Assembly (NCBI GenBank): GCA_964572985.1
Contig: CAZNIC010000005.1
Span: 6,777 to 70,776 of the forward strand
Source of the DNA: an uncultured Oscillospiraceae bacterium
Lineage (GTDB): Bacteria; Bacillota; Clostridia; UMGS1883
Reading direction: 5' to 3'
Length of the DNA stretch: 64,000 nucleotides
Below are positions 6,312-38,261 of the stretch, one piece after another. The notes below the pieces were generated by a model. It searched no databases, was not told the DNA's origin, and saw only the letters and a program-made list of their open reading frames with translations. The translations under genes were made by a program, and so were the position numbers. How positions within the stretch are numbered: position 1 is the first letter of the stretch; each line of letters begins with the position of its first letter.

Positions 6312-6388
6312 TGGCGTGCTTGGAGGGATTCGAACCCCCGACCCTTTGGTTCGTAGCCAAATACTCTATCCAACTGAGCTACAAGCAC
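6312..6388 (-). tRNA. tRNA-Arg (anticodon ACG)
   Basis: Reverse complement: GTGCTTGTAGCTCAGTTGGATAGAGTATTTGGCTACGAACCAAAGGGTCGGGGGTTCGAATCCCTCCAAGCACGCCA. It has a cloverleaf, anticodon loop CT-ACG-AA, a GTTCGAATC T-loop and an encoded CCA. Confidence 0.93.
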
Positions 6389-28368: not shown

Positions 28369-28370
28369 CT

Positions 28371-28412
28371 AAAAAAGGGAGTAAAAACAGTTAGTTTTTT
28401 ACTCCCTTTTTT
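28371..28412. terminator. Bidirectional terminator at the left edge of the TIR locus
   Basis: AAAAAAGGGAGTAAAAA-cagttag-TTTTTTACTCCCTTTTTT, lying between convergent genes. Confidence 0.8.
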
Positions 28413-28429
28413 AATAACAATTAAATCAG

Positions 28430-28810
28430 TTACTCTTCAATATGATTTTTTGCCCATACTGCTGCCGCTAATGCCGCAATACTAACGCATAACAAAAGTA
28501 TTTCTGCTGCACAAAACACTTTTAATGAAACAGGTAAAATAAGAAAGACTATAGTAATTAAAACGGTCAATATAAGATAAATCAAAGAAATAGTCGTAAA
28601 AAGTCCGTTTTGCATAACGTTTTCCGCCTTATCAAGTGCAGACAAACACAAAGATGAAAACAAAAGAGTATATGGTATAAATACAAATATTCCTGCAAAC
28701 AGCAGTTTCTCTGAGACATTTTCAACAAGAAGTGCTGCTACAACAATAACACCTATCATAATTACACAATATGAAATAAGAATAGGTAAAACTTTTTTTA
28801 AATCAAACAT
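28430..28810 (-). CDS. Small 4-TM membrane protein (last gene of the TIR/SPFH operon)
   Basis: 126 aa, almost entirely hydrophobic helices. It starts 12 nt after the stop of the SPFH gene. Confidence 0.65.
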   Translation of the reverse strand: MFDLKKVLPILISYCVIMIGVIVVAALLVENVSEKLLFAGIFVFIPYTLLFSSLCLSALDKAENVMQNGLFTTISLIYLILTVLITIVFLILPVSLKVFCAAEILLLCVSIAALAAAVWAKNHIEE

Positions 28811-28822
28811 TTTTATAACTCC

Positions 28823-30085
28823 TTACACCTTGATTCCGCACTCAAAGCAGAACTTTGCGCCCTCAACCAACAAGCTGCCGCAATTTATACAACGAACTGC
28901 CTGCTTTGCTCCGCATTCAAAGCAGAACTTTGCACCTCGAGGCAACTTTGCACCACAACTACAAATGACTCCCTCCACTGCCTCTTCTACGACGGGGTTC
29001 GCTACAGTTTCTGTCGGTGGTGTGTGTGCACTTTCCATAGTCTGCGTTGCAGGCTCAACCACATGTTGGACTGTAGACTGAATCGGTTGCGGTGCTGCGG
29101 CAGAATTCATGGCTCCACCTACCATATTTCCTACAACACCACCCATTGTCCCGCCAATTCCTGCTATCATGCCCATGCCAATTCCAAGATTTGCGAACTG
29201 ACCTGAACTCTCGTTTCCGGCAACCTTTTCCGCAACATCAAAGCTTCTTTCATCCTGATATGTATAGCCCTCAAGTCTACGTTTTTCAGCAAGAGACTGA
29301 GCTTCCATAATACGCATCTGCGATTCAGTTTGCTGTCTTATAAGGCTTACCTGCTGCTGTGTCTGCTCTTCAAAGATGTCAGTATATCTACGAGAGGTTA
29401 TTTCCTTAAGCTTACGATATGCAGGGTCGTCATCAGGTCTTACAACAGAGGCTATAAAGAACTGCTTTAAAGAAACACCGTATTCTGCAAAGTCATTAAC
29501 AAGAAGATTTTTTATAGCTTCCGATAAAATATCCAGCTGACTGTCAATTTCAAAAATATTCAGCTGTTGTTCTTTAATTGTTCTCGCAAGATATGATTTC
29601 ACACGACTCATCAAAAGAACTCTAAAGTATTTTATTAATCCTTCAGGTGAAATTGAAGTTTCTGTACCGACCAGTCTTACCAAAAAGCCTGCTGCATCTG
29701 CAATTTGAAGACTCATTTCACCGCTTGCGCCTATTTCCATAGGAAAATTATATGTAGGTTCAATAAATTGCACCTTACTATCTGTTCCCCATTTTAAAGC
29801 CATTTTTTCCACCTTATTTACAAAGTAAACTTCACAATGAAATGTACTTTCGCCTCCGGTGGGTATATTCATCAGCTTTCTTAACAAAGGGATATTTTCT
29901 GTTTTTAAAACATAACGACCTGCCGTGAAGACATCTGCTATCTGCCCGTTTTTCAAGAATATTGCTTCCTGAGATTCGTGTACAATAAGAGTTGATGATG
30001 TGTTAAAATCCTCCGCAGGATGCTTCCATACCAGAGTGTTATTATCCCCCTCATACTTAATTACTTCTAAAAACTTCATTTTCAA
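28823..30085 (-). CDS. YdjI-like SPFH/band-7 superfamily protein with a Gly/Met-rich linker and a C-terminal double zinc ribbon
   Basis: 420 aa. The N-terminal 230 aa resemble my recollection of the COG4260/YdjI family (IVHESQEAIFLKNGQIADVF..., EVYFVNKVEKMALKWGT). The linker reads GIGMGMIAGIGGTMGGVVGNMVGG. The C-terminus reads CSCGAKLPRGAKFCFECGAKQ...CINCGSLLVEGAKFCFECG. Confidence 0.75.
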   Translation of the reverse strand: MKMKFLEVIKYEGDNNTLVWKHPAEDFNTSSTLIVHESQEAIFLKNGQIADVFTAGRYVLKTENIPLLRKLMNIPTGGESTFHCEVYFVNKVEKMALKWGTDSKVQFIEPTYNFPMEIGASGEMSLQIADAAGFLVRLVGTETSISPEGLIKYFRVLLMSRVKSYLARTIKEQQLNIFEIDSQLDILSEAIKNLLVNDFAEYGVSLKQFFIASVVRPDDDPAYRKLKEITSRRYTDIFEEQTQQQVSLIRQQTESQMRIMEAQSLAEKRRLEGYTYQDERSFDVAEKVAGNESSGQFANLGIGMGMIAGIGGTMGGVVGNMVGGAMNSAAAPQPIQSTVQHVVEPATQTMESAHTPPTETVANPVVEEAVEGVICSCGAKLPRGAKFCFECGAKQAVRCINCGSLLVEGAKFCFECGIKV

Positions 30086-30090
30086 ACTCC

Positions 30091-32037
30091 TTATCTATAG
30101 AAATATGTATCAAACTGTTCCACTATAGGTGTCATTGTTTTATCAACCGTACTTCCCAATATCTCATACTTTTCTTTAAGTTCATATACAATATCTTCAA
30201 TACAAGGTTTAACCACATTAGCATAATGCTCATTTCTTTTCACGCCGGCATTTTTTGCTTCACGTCTTATTCCAATATCTCTTAACACCACAACAATCGC
30301 CGACGCACTTGCTATAATAAATAAGATTACAGCTATAATATTTCCGTCAAGCAGTTCAAACACCATAACCGGAATTAATGCGCCAAGAACAACCAAAACA
30401 ACAAAACCTATACATCCGAATGTAATATCCGCGATTTCAAATCTGCTGTTGATAAGCACATACAAAGCTATTGACCATACAAAAGGCATCAGACCACTAA
30501 CATCAACAAAGGGCATCAGCAGTGCAGAAACCAGCAAAATCAGAGCACATACTATATCCTTTTTTTCGCCAAACAAACCTATGCCTTTCTTGCTTTTTTC
30601 ATCAAGCTCAATAAGCTTTTGATATTGTTCTGCATAATTTTGTTTTAGTTTGCCGACCAGATATTTTTCTCCGTCTCTTACATTATGTTGAAACTCTTTT
30701 TGCGTATTTTTATATTCCTGTTTGTGTTGTTGCGCTCTTCGTGCTTTTTCTGCCAACACCTCACTGTCCATATAGCTGCCGAGCGAATAAAAGTGTTGAA
30801 TCGCCTGTTCATAGTCTCCCTGTTCCAAGCACTCCTGTCCTTGTTTGTAAATTCGCTTGTTCAGGGTCATCTGCTCAAACGAATTCAACAAATTTTTCGT
30901 CTCTTCATCGGCAAACTGTTTTGCTCTTTTAAACATCAAGTTGTTTTCCCATACAATGTCAATGGAAAGGTCGTTAAGATTTCGTGCTTCATTATCTGCC
31001 AGCAACGCATAGAAATGTGCCTTTCCGTTTTCCGGCTGTACGTCTAACAGCTTGCTTATTCTGGTCTTAGCCCGAATAAAATTACGTTCCTTTAAATCCC
31101 GCTCAATTTCATCTATAGGATCAATATTATCTACCGGATGCGCTTTTTTTCCTACAACTTTCAATATACCGGCTATCAAATCCTGCATCGCACCGGGCTT
31201 GCTCCAATCTATTGCCGAGGTGTACGGGATTTCCCTGGGCAATCGGTCCTTGTCCATTCCGATACATATCGGATATAATTGTTTTCGTTTGTCCTTTTCC
31301 ATTATTGCCAAATATCGTTTCCACTCATTTTTTACCCAACGGGCATTGATATGATGTGGTTCGTCTGCGATAAGAAGCATTATTTTTGCAGAGTTAAGTG
31401 CCGCATAAATACGTGGCTCGTAGTCTTTTCCCAACATGTTTTCAAGAGTCACTCTTGAAAAGAACACCTTCACGCCTTCTTTTTCCAGTTGCGTATATAT
31501 TTCTTGCGCCTCAATACTGCCTCTTGTTCTCTCCCCATTATCTTTTTCAGCTTTGAAGCATATGAACACATCGTACGGCTTTTCTTTTCTTGATATTTCT
31601 AAAAATTTTTGTTGGATATCGGCAATTCTCATTGCCTCTTTACGATAAATATCCCTCTGATATTCATCTGCATATTTTAACGCATTAAGATAGTCTGAAT
31701 CATCTAATACGTTTTTGTCACTCAATCTGCTGCATGTAGGCAAATATTCTCCTTTTCGCACATCCTTCTCGTACTCAATACCATATCTGCACAGCATCAA
31801 ATTCCAGTAGGCCTCTGCTTCGCTGCTATCTTCCGCTATGATTTGTTGATATGCCAAGTATGCCTCGTCAAATGAACCCATTTGCCTAAAAGTATTTCCT
31901 CGATTGTAAAAATACGCTTTCTTGTCATCATCAATTTTCGGCAGTGTTACCTCGCAACCGCAGCTATCACAGATGCCATGAGTTTCACCGCTTATCTGAA
32001 TACTGCCCCCGCAAATTTTACATTTTAATATTGTCAT
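30091..32037 (-). CDS. Zn-ribbon / TPR-like / TIR-domain / C-terminal 4-TM protein (paralog B)
   Basis: 648 aa. CxxC...CxxC at aa 6-26. TIR-like core at aa ~154-297 (YDVFICFKAEKD...VFFSRVTL...SAKIMLLIADEPHHINARWVKNEWKRY). Hydrophobic helices at aa ~495-600. Confidence 0.75.
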   Translation of the reverse strand: MTILKCKICGGSIQISGETHGICDSCGCEVTLPKIDDDKKAYFYNRGNTFRQMGSFDEAYLAYQQIIAEDSSEAEAYWNLMLCRYGIEYEKDVRKGEYLPTCSRLSDKNVLDDSDYLNALKYADEYQRDIYRKEAMRIADIQQKFLEISRKEKPYDVFICFKAEKDNGERTRGSIEAQEIYTQLEKEGVKVFFSRVTLENMLGKDYEPRIYAALNSAKIMLLIADEPHHINARWVKNEWKRYLAIMEKDKRKQLYPICIGMDKDRLPREIPYTSAIDWSKPGAMQDLIAGILKVVGKKAHPVDNIDPIDEIERDLKERNFIRAKTRISKLLDVQPENGKAHFYALLADNEARNLNDLSIDIVWENNLMFKRAKQFADEETKNLLNSFEQMTLNKRIYKQGQECLEQGDYEQAIQHFYSLGSYMDSEVLAEKARRAQQHKQEYKNTQKEFQHNVRDGEKYLVGKLKQNYAEQYQKLIELDEKSKKGIGLFGEKKDIVCALILLVSALLMPFVDVSGLMPFVWSIALYVLINSRFEIADITFGCIGFVVLVVLGALIPVMVFELLDGNIIAVILFIIASASAIVVVLRDIGIRREAKNAGVKRNEHYANVVKPCIEDIVYELKEKYEILGSTVDKTMTPIVEQFDTYFYR

Positions 32038-32055
32038 ATTATTACCACCTTTTTA

Positions 32056-34053
32056 CTAATTTGCTTTTTCAATATCCAATGTCATCTTCCATGTATCCCA
32101 GGGTTTCTTTTCTTCTGTTCCGATTAAATCGCTATACTCTGTCTGTAATTTTTCTTTTACTTTTGCGCTTAACGGAGCAATAACTTTTTTCTGATACCCC
32201 GCACATTTCTTTGCGGCAGCTCTCCATCTTTTTCCTCTGATTGTCGAACTGATGATATTAAACAGGCAAATCAATGTGTGTATCAGCATCAAAAGAAAAA
32301 CAATGATTGCCACAACGCTCCTTAAAGGTTGTATAATATAAATAAAAGCAAGTATCAGTCCCGGAACTCCCGCAACAAAAGCGCTTACTACAATTTGCAG
32401 AATAATGCCAAAAAAACTTTCGTTGTACATTTCTGTTATATCCGCATATTCGTTGCTCATCCACGCCAAGGACGCTACAAGTCCTCCGCAGAAAATAAAG
32501 GGACTTAACAAGTAGATTATCGTCAGCGGCAACGTCATATTGTCGGGCAAATCCAGATTCATTAAATCTCTGCCGAACAATACACTGCCCAATATTATCG
32601 AATAATAGAGCCCGCTTAAAAAAACTGTTATCATTGCAATTACAGGCATTTTCAAACAACAAATACCCTTTGTGCCGGCTTCTTTTGAATATTCCGCATA
32701 CAAATCCGTATACTCTTTGTATTCTTTAGGATATGTACTTGCAATTTCTTCCCTGAGATATTTTGTAGAATTTTTACAAATCTCTATGTAATTTTTTTTC
32801 GCCTGAGCTTTTTCTGTGTATTCCAGCTGGCAACGAATTTTGCTTTCATATTTTTTCAGATATTCAAGCAAAATGTTACGAACAGCATTTCCACCATATT
32901 CTGCCAACATTTTAAAGCTCATATCGTTTACAAGCGCATTTTCATCAACAGTTTTCTTGAAAATATCATCCAATGATTTCAAATCATACTTTAGAAGCAA
33001 CATTTTAATATGAATTTTTTCCTCATTCATATATTCATGCACATAACTTTCAAGCAGTGCCAAGGCGTCCTCTTTTTTCCCGTCTTCCAAATATTGATCC
33101 GCTCTCATCATCAGCAAATCAATATTGCTTCCAATCGTTCCTAACGCCTTTCCTGTTTGATTTTTACCCAAATGACTAAGTATGTTTTCAGTCAAAGTTT
33201 CAATCGCACCCGGGTTATTTAATTCAATCGCCTGAATTCCTCGCGGGATTTCCGCAGGCAATTCCTTTGGTGAAACATCAACACATACTGGAATAAAAAG
33301 CTTTCCGGGATCTTCGTCGCACATTGACAAGTATCTTTTCCACTCACTTTTGACCCAGGGAGAATTTATGTTTCCACTCTCATCAGCAATCACCAACATT
33401 ATCTTTGCTGATTGCAGTGCCGCAAAAACAAGTGGTTCATATTCATCAGAGGAAGGCTTTGGTTCTACTCTTGAAAAAAACGCATGTACTCCCTCGCATT
33501 GCAGTCGATTATATATTCCCTGTGCACTTGCGTGGGCTCTTGATGTTTTTTGTGCACTGAATTTATTATTACAGCATATGAACACATCGCAAGGACCGCC
33601 TCGGTTTAATGCATCCATACTCTTTTCCCTAATATATTCAATTTTATCTGCTTCGGCACGATACAATTCTTTATTATAATAGTCGGCATTATCCACTGCG
33701 GCAAGGTAATCTATATCATCATAAATAGGTTTATTGTTTACTTTGCAGCAGGTCGGAATATATTCTCCATTTTCAACATCTAATACGTATTCAACCCCAT
33801 ATCTACACAGCATCAAACACCAATGCGCCTCTGCATCCTCCCTGTCCATTGCGATAAGATGTTCATAGGCAGACTCTGCTTTTTGATAGTTTCCTAACAT
33901 TCTGAAGTGATTTGCTCTATTATACATTTCCACTCTTTCATTGTCAGTTTTTTTCGGCAGACTTATCTCTCCTCCACAGCTGTCACATACGCCATGAGTT
34001 CCCCCTACAATCCGGATATTGCCTCCGCACATTCTGCATTTTAATATTGTCAT
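32056..34053 (-). CDS. Zn-ribbon / TPR-like / TIR-domain / C-terminal multi-TM protein (paralog A)
   Basis: 665 aa with the same architecture as paralog B. TIR-like core at aa ~154-296 (CDVFICCNNKF...AFFSRVEP...SAKIMLVIADESGNINSPWVKSEWKRY). The N-termini of the two paralogs are nearly identical (MTILKC[KR][IM]CGG). Confidence 0.75.
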   Translation of the reverse strand: MTILKCRMCGGNIRIVGGTHGVCDSCGGEISLPKKTDNERVEMYNRANHFRMLGNYQKAESAYEHLIAMDREDAEAHWCLMLCRYGVEYVLDVENGEYIPTCCKVNNKPIYDDIDYLAAVDNADYYNKELYRAEADKIEYIREKSMDALNRGGPCDVFICCNNKFSAQKTSRAHASAQGIYNRLQCEGVHAFFSRVEPKPSSDEYEPLVFAALQSAKIMLVIADESGNINSPWVKSEWKRYLSMCDEDPGKLFIPVCVDVSPKELPAEIPRGIQAIELNNPGAIETLTENILSHLGKNQTGKALGTIGSNIDLLMMRADQYLEDGKKEDALALLESYVHEYMNEEKIHIKMLLLKYDLKSLDDIFKKTVDENALVNDMSFKMLAEYGGNAVRNILLEYLKKYESKIRCQLEYTEKAQAKKNYIEICKNSTKYLREEIASTYPKEYKEYTDLYAEYSKEAGTKGICCLKMPVIAMITVFLSGLYYSIILGSVLFGRDLMNLDLPDNMTLPLTIIYLLSPFIFCGGLVASLAWMSNEYADITEMYNESFFGIILQIVVSAFVAGVPGLILAFIYIIQPLRSVVAIIVFLLMLIHTLICLFNIISSTIRGKRWRAAAKKCAGYQKKVIAPLSAKVKEKLQTEYSDLIGTEEKKPWDTWKMTLDIEKAN

Positions 34054-34079
34054 TCTTTCTTCTCTCCTAATACAGTATT

Positions 34080-34134
34080 GTTTGATTTTGATATATTCAC
34101 AAATTAATGCTTTACAAACACATCAAAATCAAAC
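34080..34134. promoter_or_regulatory. 13-bp perfect inverted repeat bracketing a weak promoter-like sequence upstream of TIR paralog A
   Basis: GTTTGATTTTGAT (34080-34092) and ATCAAAATCAAAC (34122-34134), 29 nt apart. Between them, on the minus strand, is TTGTAA-16-TATATC. RBS GGAGAG lies at about 34063-34068. Confidence 0.4.
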
Positions 34135-34139
34135 ATGTT

Positions 34140-34178
34140 TTAAAAAGATAGTGTGACATAAAACGTCACACTATCTTT
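34140..34178 (-). terminator. Terminator/attenuator-like hairpin between the first membrane-protein gene and TIR paralog A
   Basis: 14-bp stem AAAGATAGTGTGAC (34144-34157) / GTCACACTATCTTT (34165-34178). On the minus strand it is followed by TTAAAAC. It begins 8 nt after the stop at 34186. Confidence 0.5.
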
Positions 34179-34185
34179 ACAACCG

Positions 34186-34683
34186 TTATTTTGTCACTTT
34201 TATATAAGACTTTCTGTCCGCGGAAGCTTCGCCAACGTATTCACCGTTTGCGTTATATACCTTTGTGCCGTCAATATATAATATTTCTCCGTTTTCACCA
34301 ACAACTTCAGTTGGGCTCATTAACGTCCAAACTGCACCGATAAAGAATACCGCAATCTTGAATGTAATACCCAATCCAGATATAAGTATAGATATAAACA
34401 ACCTGCTCTTTAAAAAATCAGGACATTTACGATATATATTCCACCAGCAGAATGCACTTATAGCAGCTACTATTAAAGCACCCAACGCGGACGCAAACTC
34501 ACCACGGATTATACATGCTACTGTAGCAGCTACCCCCACAGGCAGACAGAGACACAAATATGCACTGACGCGTCCGTATACGCCAAAAGCTTTAAAAAGA
34601 CCGGTTGTCTTGCTTTCTTTAAATGCGCAGATTATTCCAAGAATCAACAAAACCAGTGCTGCAACAATCATTACGCCTTCCAT
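34186..34683 (-). CDS. Small membrane protein (4 TM plus a ~45-aa soluble tail); first gene downstream of the invertible segment
   Basis: Start moved to MEGVMIVAALV (34683), which has a GGAGG RBS at 34692-34696. The longer track ORF (to 34737) would run through inverted-repeat site IR-L. Confidence 0.65.
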   Translation of the reverse strand: MEGVMIVAALVLLILGIICAFKESKTTGLFKAFGVYGRVSAYLCLCLPVGVAATVACIIRGEFASALGALIVAAISAFCWWNIYRKCPDFLKSRLFISILISGLGITFKIAVFFIGAVWTLMSPTEVVGENGEILYIDGTKVYNANGEYVGEASADRKSYIKVTK

Positions 34684-34709
34684 TTTTATTCCTCCTTCCC
34701 TGATAATAC

Positions 34710-34732
34710 ACCACATAATAACAATTATGTGG
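34710..34732. repeat. IR-L: lox-like recombination-site candidate ACCACATAATAACAATTATGTGG
   Basis: It is the exact reverse complement of 34939-34961. It has 9-bp palindromic arms CCACATAAT/ATTATGTGG around an asymmetric AACA core. Confidence 0.8.
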
Positions 34733-34876
34733 TGCATTTAACTTACCAAATAATATTTTAATAACAGCGTATCTGTATTATGACACAACAAAAAAGACCA
34801 ATGTGCCTAAACTTTTTCATTGGTCCTTTTGTTGTACTTCTCTTTCATCAAAAACCACTTATATTGTTTGAAATTA

Positions 34877-34904
34877 TTGACATTTTGATATTTTATGCTA
34901 TAAT
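34877..34904 (+). promoter_or_regulatory. Consensus sigma-A type promoter inside the IR-flanked segment (currently facing away from the operon)
   Basis: TTGACA (34877-34882), 16-nt spacer, extended -10 TGcTATAAT (34896-34904). Confidence 0.7.
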
Positions 34905-34938
34905 TATTACCAATGGGATATATGTATTTCCCAAAGTG

Positions 34939-34961
34939 CCACATAATTGTTATTATGTGGT
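34939..34961. repeat. IR-R: lox-like recombination-site candidate CCACATAATTGTTATTATGTGGT
   Basis: It is the exact reverse complement of IR-L, with core TGTT. It lies 10 nt downstream of the recombinase stop codon and is followed by TCTTTTTTATTTT. Confidence 0.8.
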
Positions 34962-34971
34962 CTTTTTTATT

Positions 34972-35811
34972 TTAACACCTTAGCAATCCCAGCTTCTGTA
35001 TTTGGTTGCGGTGAATTTCGCCGCTTTCCATTGTATATATTCGGGTTGTATTTACATTTGAGTGACCTAAAATATCTGCAAGCCTTACTACATCCCTTTG
35101 AATGGAATAATACGTTCTTGCAAACAAATGTCTCAAATTGTGCGGAAACACCTTTTTCTCTGATACGCCTGCTTTCTTACAGAGTTTTTTCATATCTTTC
35201 CATATATTTGAACGGTCAAGCGGATTTCCGTTTTTGCTCACAAAAACAGGTCCTTTCTTAATCTTCTCTTTTTTTATAAAGTTTTTCAGCATCTTACACA
35301 ACATTACAGGCAATATAACTACCCTCAACTTCCCTTTGCAGTTAATTGTTGCCTGCCCTCTTTCCACAGCCTCTACCGTAATACATTTCAATTCCGATAC
35401 TCGTATCCCGGTAGAGCATATTGTCTGCATCAAAAAGAAAAGCTTTCTGTTTTTCTTTTTCTTTGCTGTGTCAATAAGCATTTCATACTCCTTTTTTGTA
35501 AGCTCTTTTTCTTGATTTATAAATATCTGTTTTTGAATTTTTACAAATTTTACTTTTAAGTTATTCCACCCTTTAAATAAAAAAAACGAGTTTATCGAAG
35601 AGAGCATTGAATTCACACTAACGGGAGCATATTGTTCAATTAATAAATTTTTGTATTCAAGCATAACCTCTTTATCAATTATTTTACCCTTGCTATATTC
35701 CGCAAATGCCTTAACATCCCGAATATATTTATCAGTAGTTGCTTTTGATTTTTCCTCCGCTATAAGAAACGTTTTAAATTCTTTTATCATGTCATCTGTA
35801 ATTTCTCTCAT
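34972..35811 (-). CDS. Tyrosine-type site-specific recombinase (short, Xer/invertase-like)
   Basis: About 279 aa. Catalytic signature: STGIRVSEL (Arg), HNLRHLF (His-x-x-Arg) and LGHSNVNTTRIY (His ... Tyr). It has an N-terminal SAM-like core-binding domain and no large arm-binding domain. The ATG at 35811 is preferred over the TTG at 35820. Confidence 0.88.
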   Translation of the reverse strand: MREITDDMIKEFKTFLIAEEKSKATTDKYIRDVKAFAEYSKGKIIDKEVMLEYKNLLIEQYAPVSVNSMLSSINSFFLFKGWNNLKVKFVKIQKQIFINQEKELTKKEYEMLIDTAKKKKNRKLFFLMQTICSTGIRVSELKCITVEAVERGQATINCKGKLRVVILPVMLCKMLKNFIKKEKIKKGPVFVSKNGNPLDRSNIWKDMKKLCKKAGVSEKKVFPHNLRHLFARTYYSIQRDVVRLADILGHSNVNTTRIYTMESGEIHRNQIQKLGLLRC

Positions 35812-35861
35812 ATATGTCAAATCCTTTCCGACAATTTTTTCATAATCATTTTATCACCAAT

Positions 35862-35905
35862 AAAACAAAACCACACTGTGCAAAAAACAAGTGTGGTTTT
35901 GTTTT
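35862..35905 (-). terminator. Terminator of the nucleotidyltransferase-fusion gene (right edge of the AT-rich locus)
   Basis: AAAACAAAACCACAC ... GTGTGGTTTTGTTTT. Confidence 0.75.
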
Positions 35906-38261
35906 ATTTCAGTATTTCATCTATGCAAAAATCGCACAGCTCTCTTGCTGTTTCATAGTTTGTGCTCTCTCCGACGACATGGCACACCTCTTTGTTGCCG
36001 TCGGGCATTACCACAACCCAGCCTTTATCAAGGGTTATTTTTACGCCCTCGGAGCTTTCGGCATTGTTGCGGCTAAGATGCTTTATTTTTCCCATTACCT
36101 TTTCTATTTCGCCTTTTGGTATCTCGATAACCGTTTTTGCAATTGTAATCGGTGGTATTTGGTTTATAAGGGTTTCGATATCCTCTCGGGCAAAATAATC
36201 CACAAGCTTTATTACCGAACCTACAGCATCATAGCGGAATATATATTCATCCGAGACAATTTCTTTTCCTTTTATGCTGTCATCCGGAACAAGAGGCTCC
36301 CGCACTATTTCGCAGCCGTGTTTTTCTGCCAGCATATCTATTGCAGAGGAGGCTGTTAACGGAACGTGTATTGTTGCGCCTTTGTGCTTTTTCATTATTA
36401 CAAGACAGGTGAGTGCCATATATGCCTCATCGTCAAGTGTGCGTCTTTTAGGCAGCACCACGGTAAGTTTTTCGCATTTTGCATCTATAACAAAGCCAAT
36501 GTCAAAGCCGCCTAAATCAACGCTTTGCTCAAAAGCCTTCTTTTGGGCGACGGATATTACCTCGTACGGCATATACATACTTATCGAGCAACCAAAGTCT
36601 GCCATTGCTGAGCTTATCAGCCTTCTGCCCCATATGGCAGGACAGGCGAGGAGTATTTTGAGGGGTTTGCGTTTTTTATCGGTGTATCCTACCAAGCTTT
36701 TGAGATAATGTATTTTATATTCAAAAAGGTATTCGCTCTCTGTAATTTTTTTGCTCTCAGGATAAAGAAAATCTCCTTTTTCAAAATAGTCTTCCATTCT
36801 TCCGCGTACAGTTTCCCCAACCTCTGCTCCGTCGCTGCCTATTATATCAATCATTGCCACATCTTCGCCGTCTTTTTCAACAACGCTTATACTAATTGCA
36901 CCTTTAAGCATGTAAAAAAGAACTCCGCGCCGTGTTATTGGGAGCGGCTGTTCGCCGAAATCCTTCACACGACACCCCATGCCCAAAAGCCCTGCCACAA
37001 CGGCATCTCTTACCATTATCCCTGCCGCACTGCCATCGGTTGCAACACCTATTTCTCCACCGTCAAAGCCTGCACCCGCACACTCCCCCAGCATAGTGCA
37101 AAACCTTGGCGTTATGTCTGCATTGATAACGCCTTCAATAACACCTTTTTTATACAGTCTCGTCCTTTTTTTCTGTCCCCACAAAACGTTCTCCGAGACA
37201 GTTATGCAATCCTCAAGTGTTTTTTCGGGCCATATTTTCACAAAGGAGCGTACCGTAACAGCCTCGCCTATTTTGGTGCTTTTTCCTATCACCGCCTGTT
37301 CAAGCACTGTTGTATTATCGCCTATTATTACCCCTTCGTCTGCGATACATCCTCTGAGAGATACGTTTTTTCCGATACGGCAACCTTTCAAAACTATGCT
37401 TCGTTTAAGACTTGCGCCCTCTTTTACAACTGTGCCTTCACCTATGTGAGAATACGCTCCCACCTTTGCGCCTTTGTGTATGTGCGCGTTTTTTCCGATA
37501 TAACACGGTGCTTCCAACAGTGCACCCTTTTCAACAATTGCTCCTTCACTAACCATTATGCCCTTTGCCCGTTTCTTTTTTAAACACTCTAAAAAGCTGA
37601 AGCCCGCACGCATAAATGAGGGGATATCCTCGACGCTTATGACGGTTTCCGAGGTACTCATTGCATATATGCTTTTGCCTGCCCGAACAAGAGAAGGAAA
37701 AACATTTTCAAAAAGGTCGGTGCTCATATCTTCGGGGATGAAGCGGATTATGTCTCTGCTAAGCATATATACTCCCGCACCCTTTTCGTCGCCGGTAATA
37801 CTGTTCCAAAGGCGTTTTTCCTCAATGCGGTTGATCCTGCAGTCGCCTCCGATTGAAATTCGATTTCCCGAATTTTTTGCCACAAGGATTGTTGCATATG
37901 CCCCTCTTTGGTGATGAAATTTAACAAGACGTGAGAAATCCGCTTCACTGTAAATAAGTTTTGAAAAATACAAAAACTCCTTTGCAAGTACATCACCATG
38001 GGTTTTAAGTCCGCCGTCCTCAAAGTCAGTTTTTGCATATTGTATTTTGATTCCGTCATAGTCATTCCCGAGGCTTTTTTCTACTTCGTCGCCCATGTAA
38101 CCGGTTATGATGACAACCTCCGTAACGGAGTGTTTTTTCAAATTTTCTATAAGCCTTTGTATGAGATATTTATCTCCCATGGTTATCAGTCCCGCCGGCT
38201 TGGTACAGCTTAATGGTCTGAGTCTCGTTCCTTCTGAGGATATATTTATAACCGCCTGCAT
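35904..38261 (-). CDS. Sugar-phosphate nucleotidyltransferase / left-handed beta-helix / phosphohexomutase-like fusion protein
   Basis: Start at MQAVINISS. The N-terminus is NTP-transferase-like (SEGTRLRPLSCTKPAGL). The middle carries hexapeptide repeats. The C-terminal ~400 aa follow the PGM/PMM four-domain pattern, ending GWVVVMPDGNKEVCHVVGES. Confidence 0.75.
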   Translation of the reverse strand: MQAVINISSEGTRLRPLSCTKPAGLITMGDKYLIQRLIENLKKHSVTEVVIITGYMGDEVEKSLGNDYDGIKIQYAKTDFEDGGLKTHGDVLAKEFLYFSKLIYSEADFSRLVKFHHQRGAYATILVAKNSGNRISIGGDCRINRIEEKRLWNSITGDEKGAGVYMLSRDIIRFIPEDMSTDLFENVFPSLVRAGKSIYAMSTSETVISVEDIPSFMRAGFSFLECLKKKRAKGIMVSEGAIVEKGALLEAPCYIGKNAHIHKGAKVGAYSHIGEGTVVKEGASLKRSIVLKGCRIGKNVSLRGCIADEGVIIGDNTTVLEQAVIGKSTKIGEAVTVRSFVKIWPEKTLEDCITVSENVLWGQKKRTRLYKKGVIEGVINADITPRFCTMLGECAGAGFDGGEIGVATDGSAAGIMVRDAVVAGLLGMGCRVKDFGEQPLPITRRGVLFYMLKGAISISVVEKDGEDVAMIDIIGSDGAEVGETVRGRMEDYFEKGDFLYPESKKITESEYLFEYKIHYLKSLVGYTDKKRKPLKILLACPAIWGRRLISSAMADFGCSISMYMPYEVISVAQKKAFEQSVDLGGFDIGFVIDAKCEKLTVVLPKRRTLDDEAYMALTCLVIMKKHKGATIHVPLTASSAIDMLAEKHGCEIVREPLVPDDSIKGKEIVSDEYIFRYDAVGSVIKLVDYFAREDIETLINQIPPITIAKTVIEIPKGEIEKVMGKIKHLSRNNAESSEGVKITLDKGWVVVMPDGNKEVCHVVGESTNYETARELCDFCIDEILK

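Follow-up and report, generated by a model that had tools for sequence, protein, structure and literature searches.

TIR-domain enzymes that cleave nicotinamide adenine dinucleotide (NAD+) have a central place in the immunity of bacteria, plants and animals. The known catalytic TIR domains are activated by assembly, for example in the SARM1 octamer, in AbTir, in the filaments of TIR-STING and TIR-SAVED, in the SPARTA tetramers and in the plant resistosomes. To our knowledge, the bacterial TIR enzymes with this activity (NADases) are cytosolic sensors or effectors. SPFH proteins, on the other side of the present comparison, are classic organisers of membrane microdomains. Here we describe a locus in which the two kinds of protein are encoded together. 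It lies in a stretch of 64,000 nucleotides (nt), hereafter the window, from an uncultured Oscillospiraceae bacterium (assembly GCA_964572985.1, contig CAZNIC010000005.1, positions 6,777 to 70,776), and comprises two tandem genes for predicted membrane-anchored TIR proteins, a gene for an SPFH protein with a zinc ribbon, a gene for a small protein with four transmembrane (TM) helices, and a putative invertible promoter with its recombinase. We suggest that these genes encode membrane-triggered, oligomerisation-activated NAD+ cleavage under phase-variable control, a reading to which we give a probability of about 0.5.

The closest described SPFH system is found in Bacillus subtilis. There the soluble protein YdjI is drawn to the membrane by YdjG, which carries zinc ribbons and a TM segment, and by YdjH (PMC8581546, PMC11237479). 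The YdjGHI proteins act within the PspA envelope-stress module (PMC8581546, PMC11237479 and a 2026 preprint).

The tandem TIR proteins and their family

Both TIR genes are on the minus strand. The upstream gene (32056-34053) encodes 665 amino acids (aa) and the downstream gene (30091-32037) encodes 648 aa; they correspond to paralogs A and B of the original prediction, which was made from the letters of the window without database searches and placed both open reading frames correctly. Its description of the domain order holds as well. Both copies begin with MTILKC[KR][IM]CGG and have the CxxC-N13-CxxC pattern, with cysteines at 6, 9, 23 and 26. The TPR-like module is recognised by Pfam TPR models at residues 42-80, and the quoted motifs AEA[YH]W.LMLCRYG[IV]EY...GEY[IL]PTC, [YC]DVFIC, [VA]FFSRV, SAKIML[LV]IADE and WVK[NS]EW are present in both proteins. 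The Pfam model TIR_2 matches with 39.5 bits in the downstream copy and 41.0 bits in the upstream copy, both above its curated cut-off of 28 bits. After the TIR domain there are about 180 aa of helices (residues 307-483) and then four TM helices, as judged from hydropathy and an AlphaFold model.

For the downstream copy, the full-length model reaches a mean pLDDT (the predicted local confidence score) of 86.8. It places zinc-ribbon strands at residues 12-31 (zinc ribbon, DNA positions 31939-32037), TPR helices at 38-84, a β-hairpin at 87-102 that corresponds to the LCRYGIEY...PT motif, and further helices at 114-151 (together 31585-31938). The TIR domain follows at 157-295 (31150-31575), then the helical region at 307-483 (30583-31125), four hydrophobic helices at about 492-590 (30268-30573) and a cytosolic helical tail (30094-30267). 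The hydropathy of both copies agrees with the modelled TM layout, and the TIR domain of the upstream copy lies at about 33166-33591. When the full-length model was searched with Foldseek, it gave TPR and TIR matches only, with none for the TM bundle or for the module of zinc ribbon and hairpin. NCBIfam holds no family for either protein; a ThcB4 match with E = 0.033 was disregarded.

The evidence for the TIR fold comes from a separate AlphaFold model of residues 140-300 of the downstream copy (75 sequences), with a pLDDT of 89.8 and a pTM (the predicted template modelling score) of 0.86. Its elements follow the order βA (DVFIC), αA, βB (VFF), αB, βC (IMLLIA) and αC. A Foldseek search of this model against the PDB returned TIR domains for all of the top 24 matches, led by the catalytic ones: SARM1 (E = 1.2e-5), C. 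elegans TIR-1, flax L6, RPV1, AbTir, TIR-STING and SPARTA TIR-APAZ. The template modelling score (TM-score) is 0.75 for AbTir bound to 3AD (target-normalised; root-mean-square deviation 3.4 Å) and up to 0.72 for SPARTA TIR-APAZ (query-normalised). The adaptor TIRs MyD88, TIRAP, TRIF and TRAM also match structurally, with weaker E-values than the catalytic TIRs, and the nucleoside 2-deoxyribosyltransferase-like DNPH1 first appears at rank 25 (E = 4e-3). The original prediction had left room for a non-TIR flavodoxin-like fold; the nearest neighbours of the model are TIR structures. Judged by the model, the domain is a true TIR fold.

The original prediction also claimed that a glutamate in each copy, E238 in the downstream protein (codon 31324-31326) and E237 in the upstream protein (codon 33343-33345), aligns with the catalytic glutamate of the WxxxE motif in NADase TIRs. 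The numbering stands, and the alignment is supported by a comparison with plant TIRs. A profile of the TIR region from 24 diverse family members, searched against PDB sequences, matches RPV1, RUN1 and ROQ1, and W-V-K-N-E falls on W-C-L-D/E-E (WCLDE in RUN1 and RPV1, WCLEE in ROQ1). The residue aligned with E238 in this profile alignment is chain residue 86 in ROQ1 and chain residue 81 in the RUN1 construct, which we take to be the catalytic E86 and E100. A search of PDB sequences with a single sequence matched TPR proteins only. In the TIR-only model, helix αC begins at R233-W234 directly after βC, and E238 is within its first turns. In the alignment, all 121 homologues have the Trp and the Glu of WxxxE, and the longer motif WxxxEWxR is found in 117 of the 119 copies at 80 genome loci, the two exceptions being truncated open reading frames. 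By the glutamate criterion, the sequence alignments and the model support placing these TIR domains in the catalytic class. The invariance of the glutamate in the alignment argues for catalysis rather than for a pure scaffold, and the two TIR proteins would then presumably cleave NAD+.

The pair belongs to a large family. Near-invariant positions in the 121 aligned members include the CxxC pairs, W78, LCRYGIEY, DVFIC, FFSR, E207-P208 and W234-V-K-N-E238-W-x-R. Because these motifs are invariant or nearly so across the alignment, their presence in both window proteins is, on this comparison, not due to chance. A first protein search, in which 8,000 candidates were scored, gave at least 1,836 matches, and an exhaustive search with residues 1-300 gave at least 3,784 clusters at 50% identity (E <= 1e-30). 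The matching proteins of the latter search have 480-3,073 aa, and the match always starts from residue 1. At least 593 species loci came out of a genome scan, most of them in Clostridia of the gut and rumen (Lachnospiraceae, Oscillospiraceae, Ruminococcaceae and Christensenellales). The domain arrangement that the original prediction called unusual is confirmed as such but is not rare, since it defines a family of thousands. The source databases label its members only as "TIR domain-containing protein", and in the literature, searched also for TIR with invertible promoters and for TIR in Lachnospiraceae, we found no paper describing this TIR family or the pairing of TIR with SPFH.

Within the family, the N-terminal 300 residues are highly conserved and divergence is complete after the helical stalk. 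In most members a single TM helix leads into a domain of 200-900 aa (DUF6273, RCC1 propellers, RHS repeats or unassigned); one relative has ankyrin repeats, and its hydrophobic segment is marginal. A minority, including both window proteins, end in a bundle of three to five TM helices, and this multi-pass type often occurs in tandem arrays. Since there is no signal peptide and the proteins start with a zinc ribbon, the conserved N-terminal module would be cytosolic and the variable domain extracytoplasmic. Six loci (L019, L017, L031, L044, L061 and L070) have members of 390-600 aa without a predicted TM helix, which may be a soluble sub-class or truncated open reading frames. A locus carries one to four tandem TIR copies. 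At the 37 of the 80 genome loci that are well flanked, with at least 2.5 kb on both sides, we count one copy in 23, two in nine and three in five.

The two copies of the window have diverged strongly from each other. Their overall identity is 33% (BLASTP, E = 8e-99), and it is uneven, with 47.5% over residues 1-300 and 23% beyond residue 300. At the 111 columns with at least 90% identity in the alignment of 121 members, the upstream copy deviates at 31, the downstream copy at 12 and the median member at one, so that the upstream copy is the most divergent of all aligned members, though it keeps W233 and E237. In known TIR enzymes, the NAD+ pocket is lined or gated by the βA-αA and BB loops, which also make up the assembly interface. 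The upstream copy is changed in both, with K162N, R170T, T171S and S174H in the βA-αA loop and T197E, L198P, E199K and K201S in the BB loop, and also in αE (Q285E, D286T, G290N and K293S/D). The gate loops of the downstream copy keep the family consensus apart from K201M. Comparison with L002, a syntenic locus in another species, and with a related contig shows positional orthology by bit scores. The downstream copy is closest to their downstream copies P0002 and P0003 and the upstream copy to their upstream copies P0026 and P0030, both with full-length sequences and with the C-terminal parts. The duplication is therefore old.

These differences bear on two claims of the original prediction. 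The first was that retention of the glutamate in both copies argues for enzymes. The invariance of the residue strengthens this, but that both copies are enzymatic is insecure, since the loops of the upstream copy are changed; from its sequence, this copy may be a weak enzyme or a specialised partner despite its Trp and Glu. The second was that the duplication suggests a hetero-oligomer or two sensor specificities. A hetero-oligomer is no general requirement of the family, given the 23 well-flanked loci with a single TIR gene, whereas tandem arrays with hypervariable C-termini favour different sensor specificities. Even so, an asymmetric hetero-oligomer is the alternative that survives best. 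The downstream protein would be the enzyme and the upstream protein a regulator or sensor of weak catalytic activity that has to pair with it, as in the plant pair RRS1/RPS4. The clustering of the 31 upstream deviations in the βA-αA loop, the BB loop and αE would fit such a division of labour, as would the αE changes common to P0026 and P0030, the retention of both copies since an old duplication and the frequency of the multi-pass type in tandem arrays. However, W233 and E237 are still present upstream, the BB-loop changes are absent from P0026 and P0030, and most family loci have only one TIR gene. We therefore regard a strict division of this kind as possible but somewhat doubtful.

Operon partners, invertible promoter and cassette borders

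The original prediction was confined to the TIR pair, and its picture of the context was incomplete in that it lacked the SPFH partner, the four-TM partner and the invertible promoter. Gaps of 5-18 nt separate the four operon genes. Directly after the downstream TIR gene, on the minus strand, is the gene for a 420-aa SPFH protein (28823-30085), its start 5-11 nt past the stop of the TIR gene. In this protein, Pfam recognises a Band_7_1 SPFH domain (E = 2.7e-40) and, at the C-terminus, a double zinc ribbon (DZR, E = 1.7e-9), with a Gly/Met-rich linker between them; it resembles YdjI/SamI. Twelve nucleotides further is the last gene of the operon (28430-28810, minus strand), which encodes a 126-aa protein with four TM helices. 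This set of partners is conserved. In 32 of the 37 well-flanked loci, the TIR gene or genes adjoin a same-strand gene for a homologue of the SPFH protein, and a four-TM gene follows within about 15 nt of the SPFH gene in most loci. The four-TM protein usually has about 230 aa; the short form occurs in the window, L002 and L027. Neither form (126 aa here, about 230 aa in relatives) has a Pfam family or a TPM domain. In L002, whose TIR proteins are about 43% identical to those of the window, the order is the same: recombinase, TIR, TIR, SPFH with zinc ribbon, and a 125-aa TM protein. As a side observation, the gene after the SPFH gene in L009 (13609-14196) encodes not a four-TM protein but a 195-aa soluble protein with a similar zinc-ribbon start, MKQLKCEMCGS...

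The other end of the cassette carries a putative switch. A 282-aa Xer-like tyrosine recombinase, the candidate invertase, is encoded at 34972-35820 on the minus strand. It matches Pfam Phage_integrase with E = 1.2e-28, and in NCBIfam it is XerA/XerD-like, below the equivalog cut-offs. Next to it is an element (34705-34966) in which two 28-nt inverted repeats (34705-34732 and 34939-34966) surround 206 bp. The arms are 93% complementary and form the longest inverted repeat of the region. Each is a near-palindrome of the form ACATAAT-N4-ATTATGT, and the core sites are ACATAAT-AACA-ATTATGT (34713-34730) and ACATAAT-TGTT-ATTATGT (34941-34958). The 4-nt centre reads AACA in one and TGTT in the other, which puts the sites in inverted orientation. 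The window contains exactly two copies of the core site, compared with an expectation of 0.04. The invertible segment contains a consensus promoter on the plus strand (34877-34904), TTGACA-16-TGcTATAAT, with 12 of 12 hexamer matches and an extended -10. It is the only perfect promoter of the region, and it faces the recombinase and points away from the TIR operon, i.e., the switch is OFF.

Each of the four other recombinase-linked TIR loci (L002, L023, L042 and L055) has the same core site beside a close homologue of the recombinase, and the spacing between the arms is 116-246 bp across these loci. A promoter scan gave a strong extended -10 promoter facing the recombinase in L002 and L023; in L042 and L055, weaker -10-like elements in the same direction were read by eye. 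We also scanned metagenomes for the combination of a promoter -10 and the site, and obtained 84 loci, 58 of them with an adjacent recombinase. These comprise 42 in the OFF arrangement and 16 in the ON arrangement, in which the promoter is at the far repeat and faces the cargo. One pair bears on inversion itself. L095 (ON) and L146 (OFF) have the same gene order, with DNA identities of 89.7% for the recombinase and 87.6% for the cargo, and only the interior is reversed. The opposite interior between collinear flanks shows that this switch family inverts. This family of recombinase and site is a phase-variation module that is widespread in gut metagenomes (L083-L162). Its cargo there includes surface proteins, polysaccharide genes and genes of restriction-modification (R-M) type, and also TIR-free operons in which several zinc-ribbon proteins and DUF6591 accompany a Band_7_1 SPFH protein (plus GYF_2).

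Further elements separate the switch from the TIR genes. The first gene behind the switch encodes a 165-aa multi-TM protein (34186-34683, minus strand; ribosome-binding site GGAAGGAGG), which has no match in Pfam, PADLOC or NCBIfam. It is also called in L001, and is not present in the otherwise syntenic L002. A perfect 14-bp hairpin with a T-run (34144-34178) separates it from the first TIR gene, directly upstream of which two 19-nt inverted-repeat arms lie 19 nt apart (34079-34135). Together these elements (34079-34178) are possibly a terminator or attenuator, or an operator; both also occur in L001. The sample SRR14307658 carries a contig identical to this one. Since the TIR locus is seen only in the OFF state, and since the 165-aa gene and the hairpin intervene, we can only infer that the switch controls the TIR genes.

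The cassette extends from about 28414 to 35858 (about 7.4 kb), with a G+C content of 0.35-0.39 against 0.42-0.45 outside. At one end, between the operon and a convergent aminotransferase gene, is a perfect 18-bp hairpin (28370-28413), likely both a bidirectional terminator and the cassette boundary, and at the other end is a perfect 19-bp hairpin (35859-35908). The flanking genes are housekeeping ones, with a GyrA/ParC-like gene and the aminotransferase on one side and a nucleotidyltransferase/PGM fusion on the other. The flanks of the L002 cassette differ from these. The hairpin bounds, the lower G+C content and the differing flanks in L002 suggest that the cassette was acquired or is horizontally mobile. 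Elsewhere in the window, a transfer RNA gene (6315-6388, minus strand) is the sole Rfam match.

Proposed mechanism and the alternatives

How might these parts work together? We suggest that both TIR proteins sit at the inner membrane with the N-terminal part in the cytoplasm, anchored by the four-helix bundle, and that the C-terminal membrane part, which is extracellular in relatives, would act as the sensor. A TIR fixed at the membrane by a TM anchor lends itself to regulation by lateral clustering, and the SPFH protein and the four-TM protein would restrain or nucleate the TIR proteins. An envelope perturbation, e.g., phage attack or membrane damage, would alter the packing of the TIR proteins, whether inside the SPFH assembly or brought about by it. 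Their cytosolic domains would converge to form composite active sites, and NAD+ would be depleted or turned into a signalling nucleotide, with growth arrest of the affected cell as the result. The TIR domain is probably the effector itself, since the operon encodes no recognisable receptor for a TIR-made nucleotide. The downstream copy would probably be the main enzyme. For the upstream copy, fast-evolving and with changed substrate-gate loops, the role of a specialised partner or of an alternative sensor would be more likely. The Xer-like recombinase would flip the 206-bp segment that holds the only strong promoter, which is OFF in this assembly.

The analysis shows the architecture, the TIR fold, the place of the glutamate and its conservation, the conserved gene partnership and the anatomy of the switch, with inversion at related loci. 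What we infer is that the TIR proteins cleave NAD+, what triggers them, what the SPFH protein does and how the cell is affected. As to the trigger, the hypervariable C-termini, the tandem arrays and the phase variation speak for conflict or recognition; the counterpoints to a classical defence role are the lack of PADLOC matches, the housekeeping neighbours and the near-ubiquity in the clade.

Several observations weigh against our proposal. Phage and plasmid collections contained no copies of the cassette, and no defence model of PADLOC matches any cassette protein; among family relatives PADLOC gave weak ThsB-like TIR matches (E = 3e-4 to 2e-3) and one PDC-S66, with no system. The neighbours of the 80 related loci (148 proteins) are mostly housekeeping proteins, so there is no clear defence-island signal; the defence genes among them are one R-M pair, two AbiH and two ATPase-Toprim. 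On the structural side, the full-length model has a pTM of 0.47, so that the relative placement of the domains is not fixed by it, and the BB and βA-αA loops of the upstream copy have lost the family consensus. As for the switch, all TIR-linked copies appear OFF (the window, L001, L002, L023, L042 and L055, where the window and L001 are identical), with no ON-orientation copy among the six assemblies, and inversion is documented only in related switches with other cargo. The T-run hairpin at 34144-34178 separates the first gene behind the switch from the TIR genes, and read-through is assumed.

Part of this evidence would be expected if the operon were an envelope-stress module, i.e., a surveillance complex like SamGHI/YdjGHI in which the TIR domain couples membrane or cell-wall stress to NAD+ metabolism or nucleotide signalling, and in which the outcome is adaptation or dormancy and not specific to phage. 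The combination of Band_7_1 with a C-terminal zinc ribbon is the architecture of YdjI/SamI, whose membrane partners YdjG and YdjH recruit YdjI and signal stress. The presence of the family at no fewer than 593 species loci amounts to near-ubiquity in gut Clostridia, the flanks are mostly housekeeping, PADLOC matches none of the proteins, and related switches govern operons with Band_7_1 and zinc-ribbon proteins that have no TIR. Against these points, the cassette is without pspA and its four-TM protein without a TPM domain. Hypervariable C-termini, arrays of paralogues and phase-variable expression more typically mark systems for conflict or surface recognition, and, as a matter of general knowledge, the bacterial catalytic TIRs have so far been tied to immunity (Thoeris, CBASS, SPARTA and AbTir). 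We consider an envelope-stress role unlikely, though it deserves to be kept in view.

It is also conceivable that the TIR domains are non-enzymatic and serve only as homotypic assembly modules at the membrane, like those of animal TLR and MyD88. We think this improbable. The adaptors MyD88, TIRAP, TRIF and TRAM are among the structural matches, with weaker E-values, and the loops of the upstream copy are degenerate, but the Glu and Trp of WxxxE are invariant family-wide, and catalytic TIRs make up all of the best matches, by structure as well as by profile. Moreover, the operon encodes no effector domain for a scaffold to recruit. Finally, the constant N-terminus, the variable C-termini, the tandem arrays and the RHS repeats of one relative are reminiscent of polymorphic toxins or secreted effectors, with the N-terminus as a trafficking module and the C-termini as delivered toxins, but we rejected this very improbable reading on topology, since there is no signal peptide, the zinc-ribbon start is a cytosolic feature, a TM helix lies between the conserved and variable parts, the C-termini in the window are TM bundles only, and the cassette is without immunity or secretion-system genes.

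Comparison with known systems

The window proteins share with the catalytic TIRs (SARM1, AbTir, RUN1, RPV1, ROQ1, L6, SPARTA TIR-APAZ, TIR-STING and ThsB) the fold and the Trp-x-x-x-Glu of αC, and presumably the gating by oligomerisation. Sequence identity to them is only 14-22%. Unlike in the known catalytic TIRs, the domain is placed after a zinc ribbon, a TPR and a β-hairpin module and is TM-anchored. No SAM/ARM, NB-ARC, STING, SAVED, Argonaute or ThsA partner is present; its place is taken by an SPFH scaffold and a four-TM protein. Thoeris was considered as an assignment and excluded, as the cassette has no ThsA of the SIR2, Macro or SLOG type, its partners are the SPFH-zinc ribbon and TM proteins, and PADLOC gives no match. 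The tie of a family of thousands of membrane-anchored TIR proteins to an SPFH scaffold offers a testable idea of how membrane events could lead to TIR oligomerisation. In turn, the pairing with TIR would give SPFH/flotillin-like proteins a concrete client.

The likeness to PspA-YdjGHI (SamGHI) lies in the soluble Band_7_1 SPFH protein with its C-terminal zinc ribbon and in membrane partners that run from zinc ribbon to TM. The difference is that the partners in the window carry TPR and TIR, whereas YdjG carries an NTF2-like domain. No PspA or TPM match was found in any cassette open reading frame or in the 230-aa four-TM proteins of relatives. Because there is neither PspA nor a TPM domain, the SPFH operon resembles Psp/SamGHI in design and is not a member.

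A second likeness is to the Toll-like and IL-1 receptors, since in most family members, too, one polypeptide joins a cytosolic TIR through a single TM helix to a variable domain outside the cytoplasm. In the family, however, the TIR is N-terminal (type II topology) and of the catalytic type, and the window proteins have four TM helices and no ectodomain. There is no evidence for common descent of the receptor architecture. We tentatively raise the possibility, at odds clearly below even, that the family is a bacterial counterpart of Toll-like-receptor logic, with a hypervariable sensor, a catalytic cytosolic TIR and an SPFH microdomain scaffold that controls clustering. If this is true, gut Clostridia carry one to four receptors per locus, some of them phase-variable, and thus an unrecognised immune or surveillance system at the level of the envelope.

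The switch has the parts of known invertible promoters such as E. coli fimS with FimB/FimE, the C. difficile cwpV switch with RecV and the gut invertons, i.e., an adjacent recombinase, inverted repeats and a strong promoter. Both orientations occur among related loci, as in known switches, though the window locus is seen only OFF. The cargo differs, being an operon for a cytosolic enzyme with a membrane scaffold here and a fimbria, capsule or surface protein in the known switches. The invertible promoter is also an experimental handle, since locked-ON and locked-OFF strains can be built, and it suggests that populations of gut commensals hedge their bets on an enzyme that is costly or toxic. 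Taken as a whole, the system matches no described one beyond its TIR domain. What is new is the domain context, the conserved set of partners and the proposed phase-variable expression.

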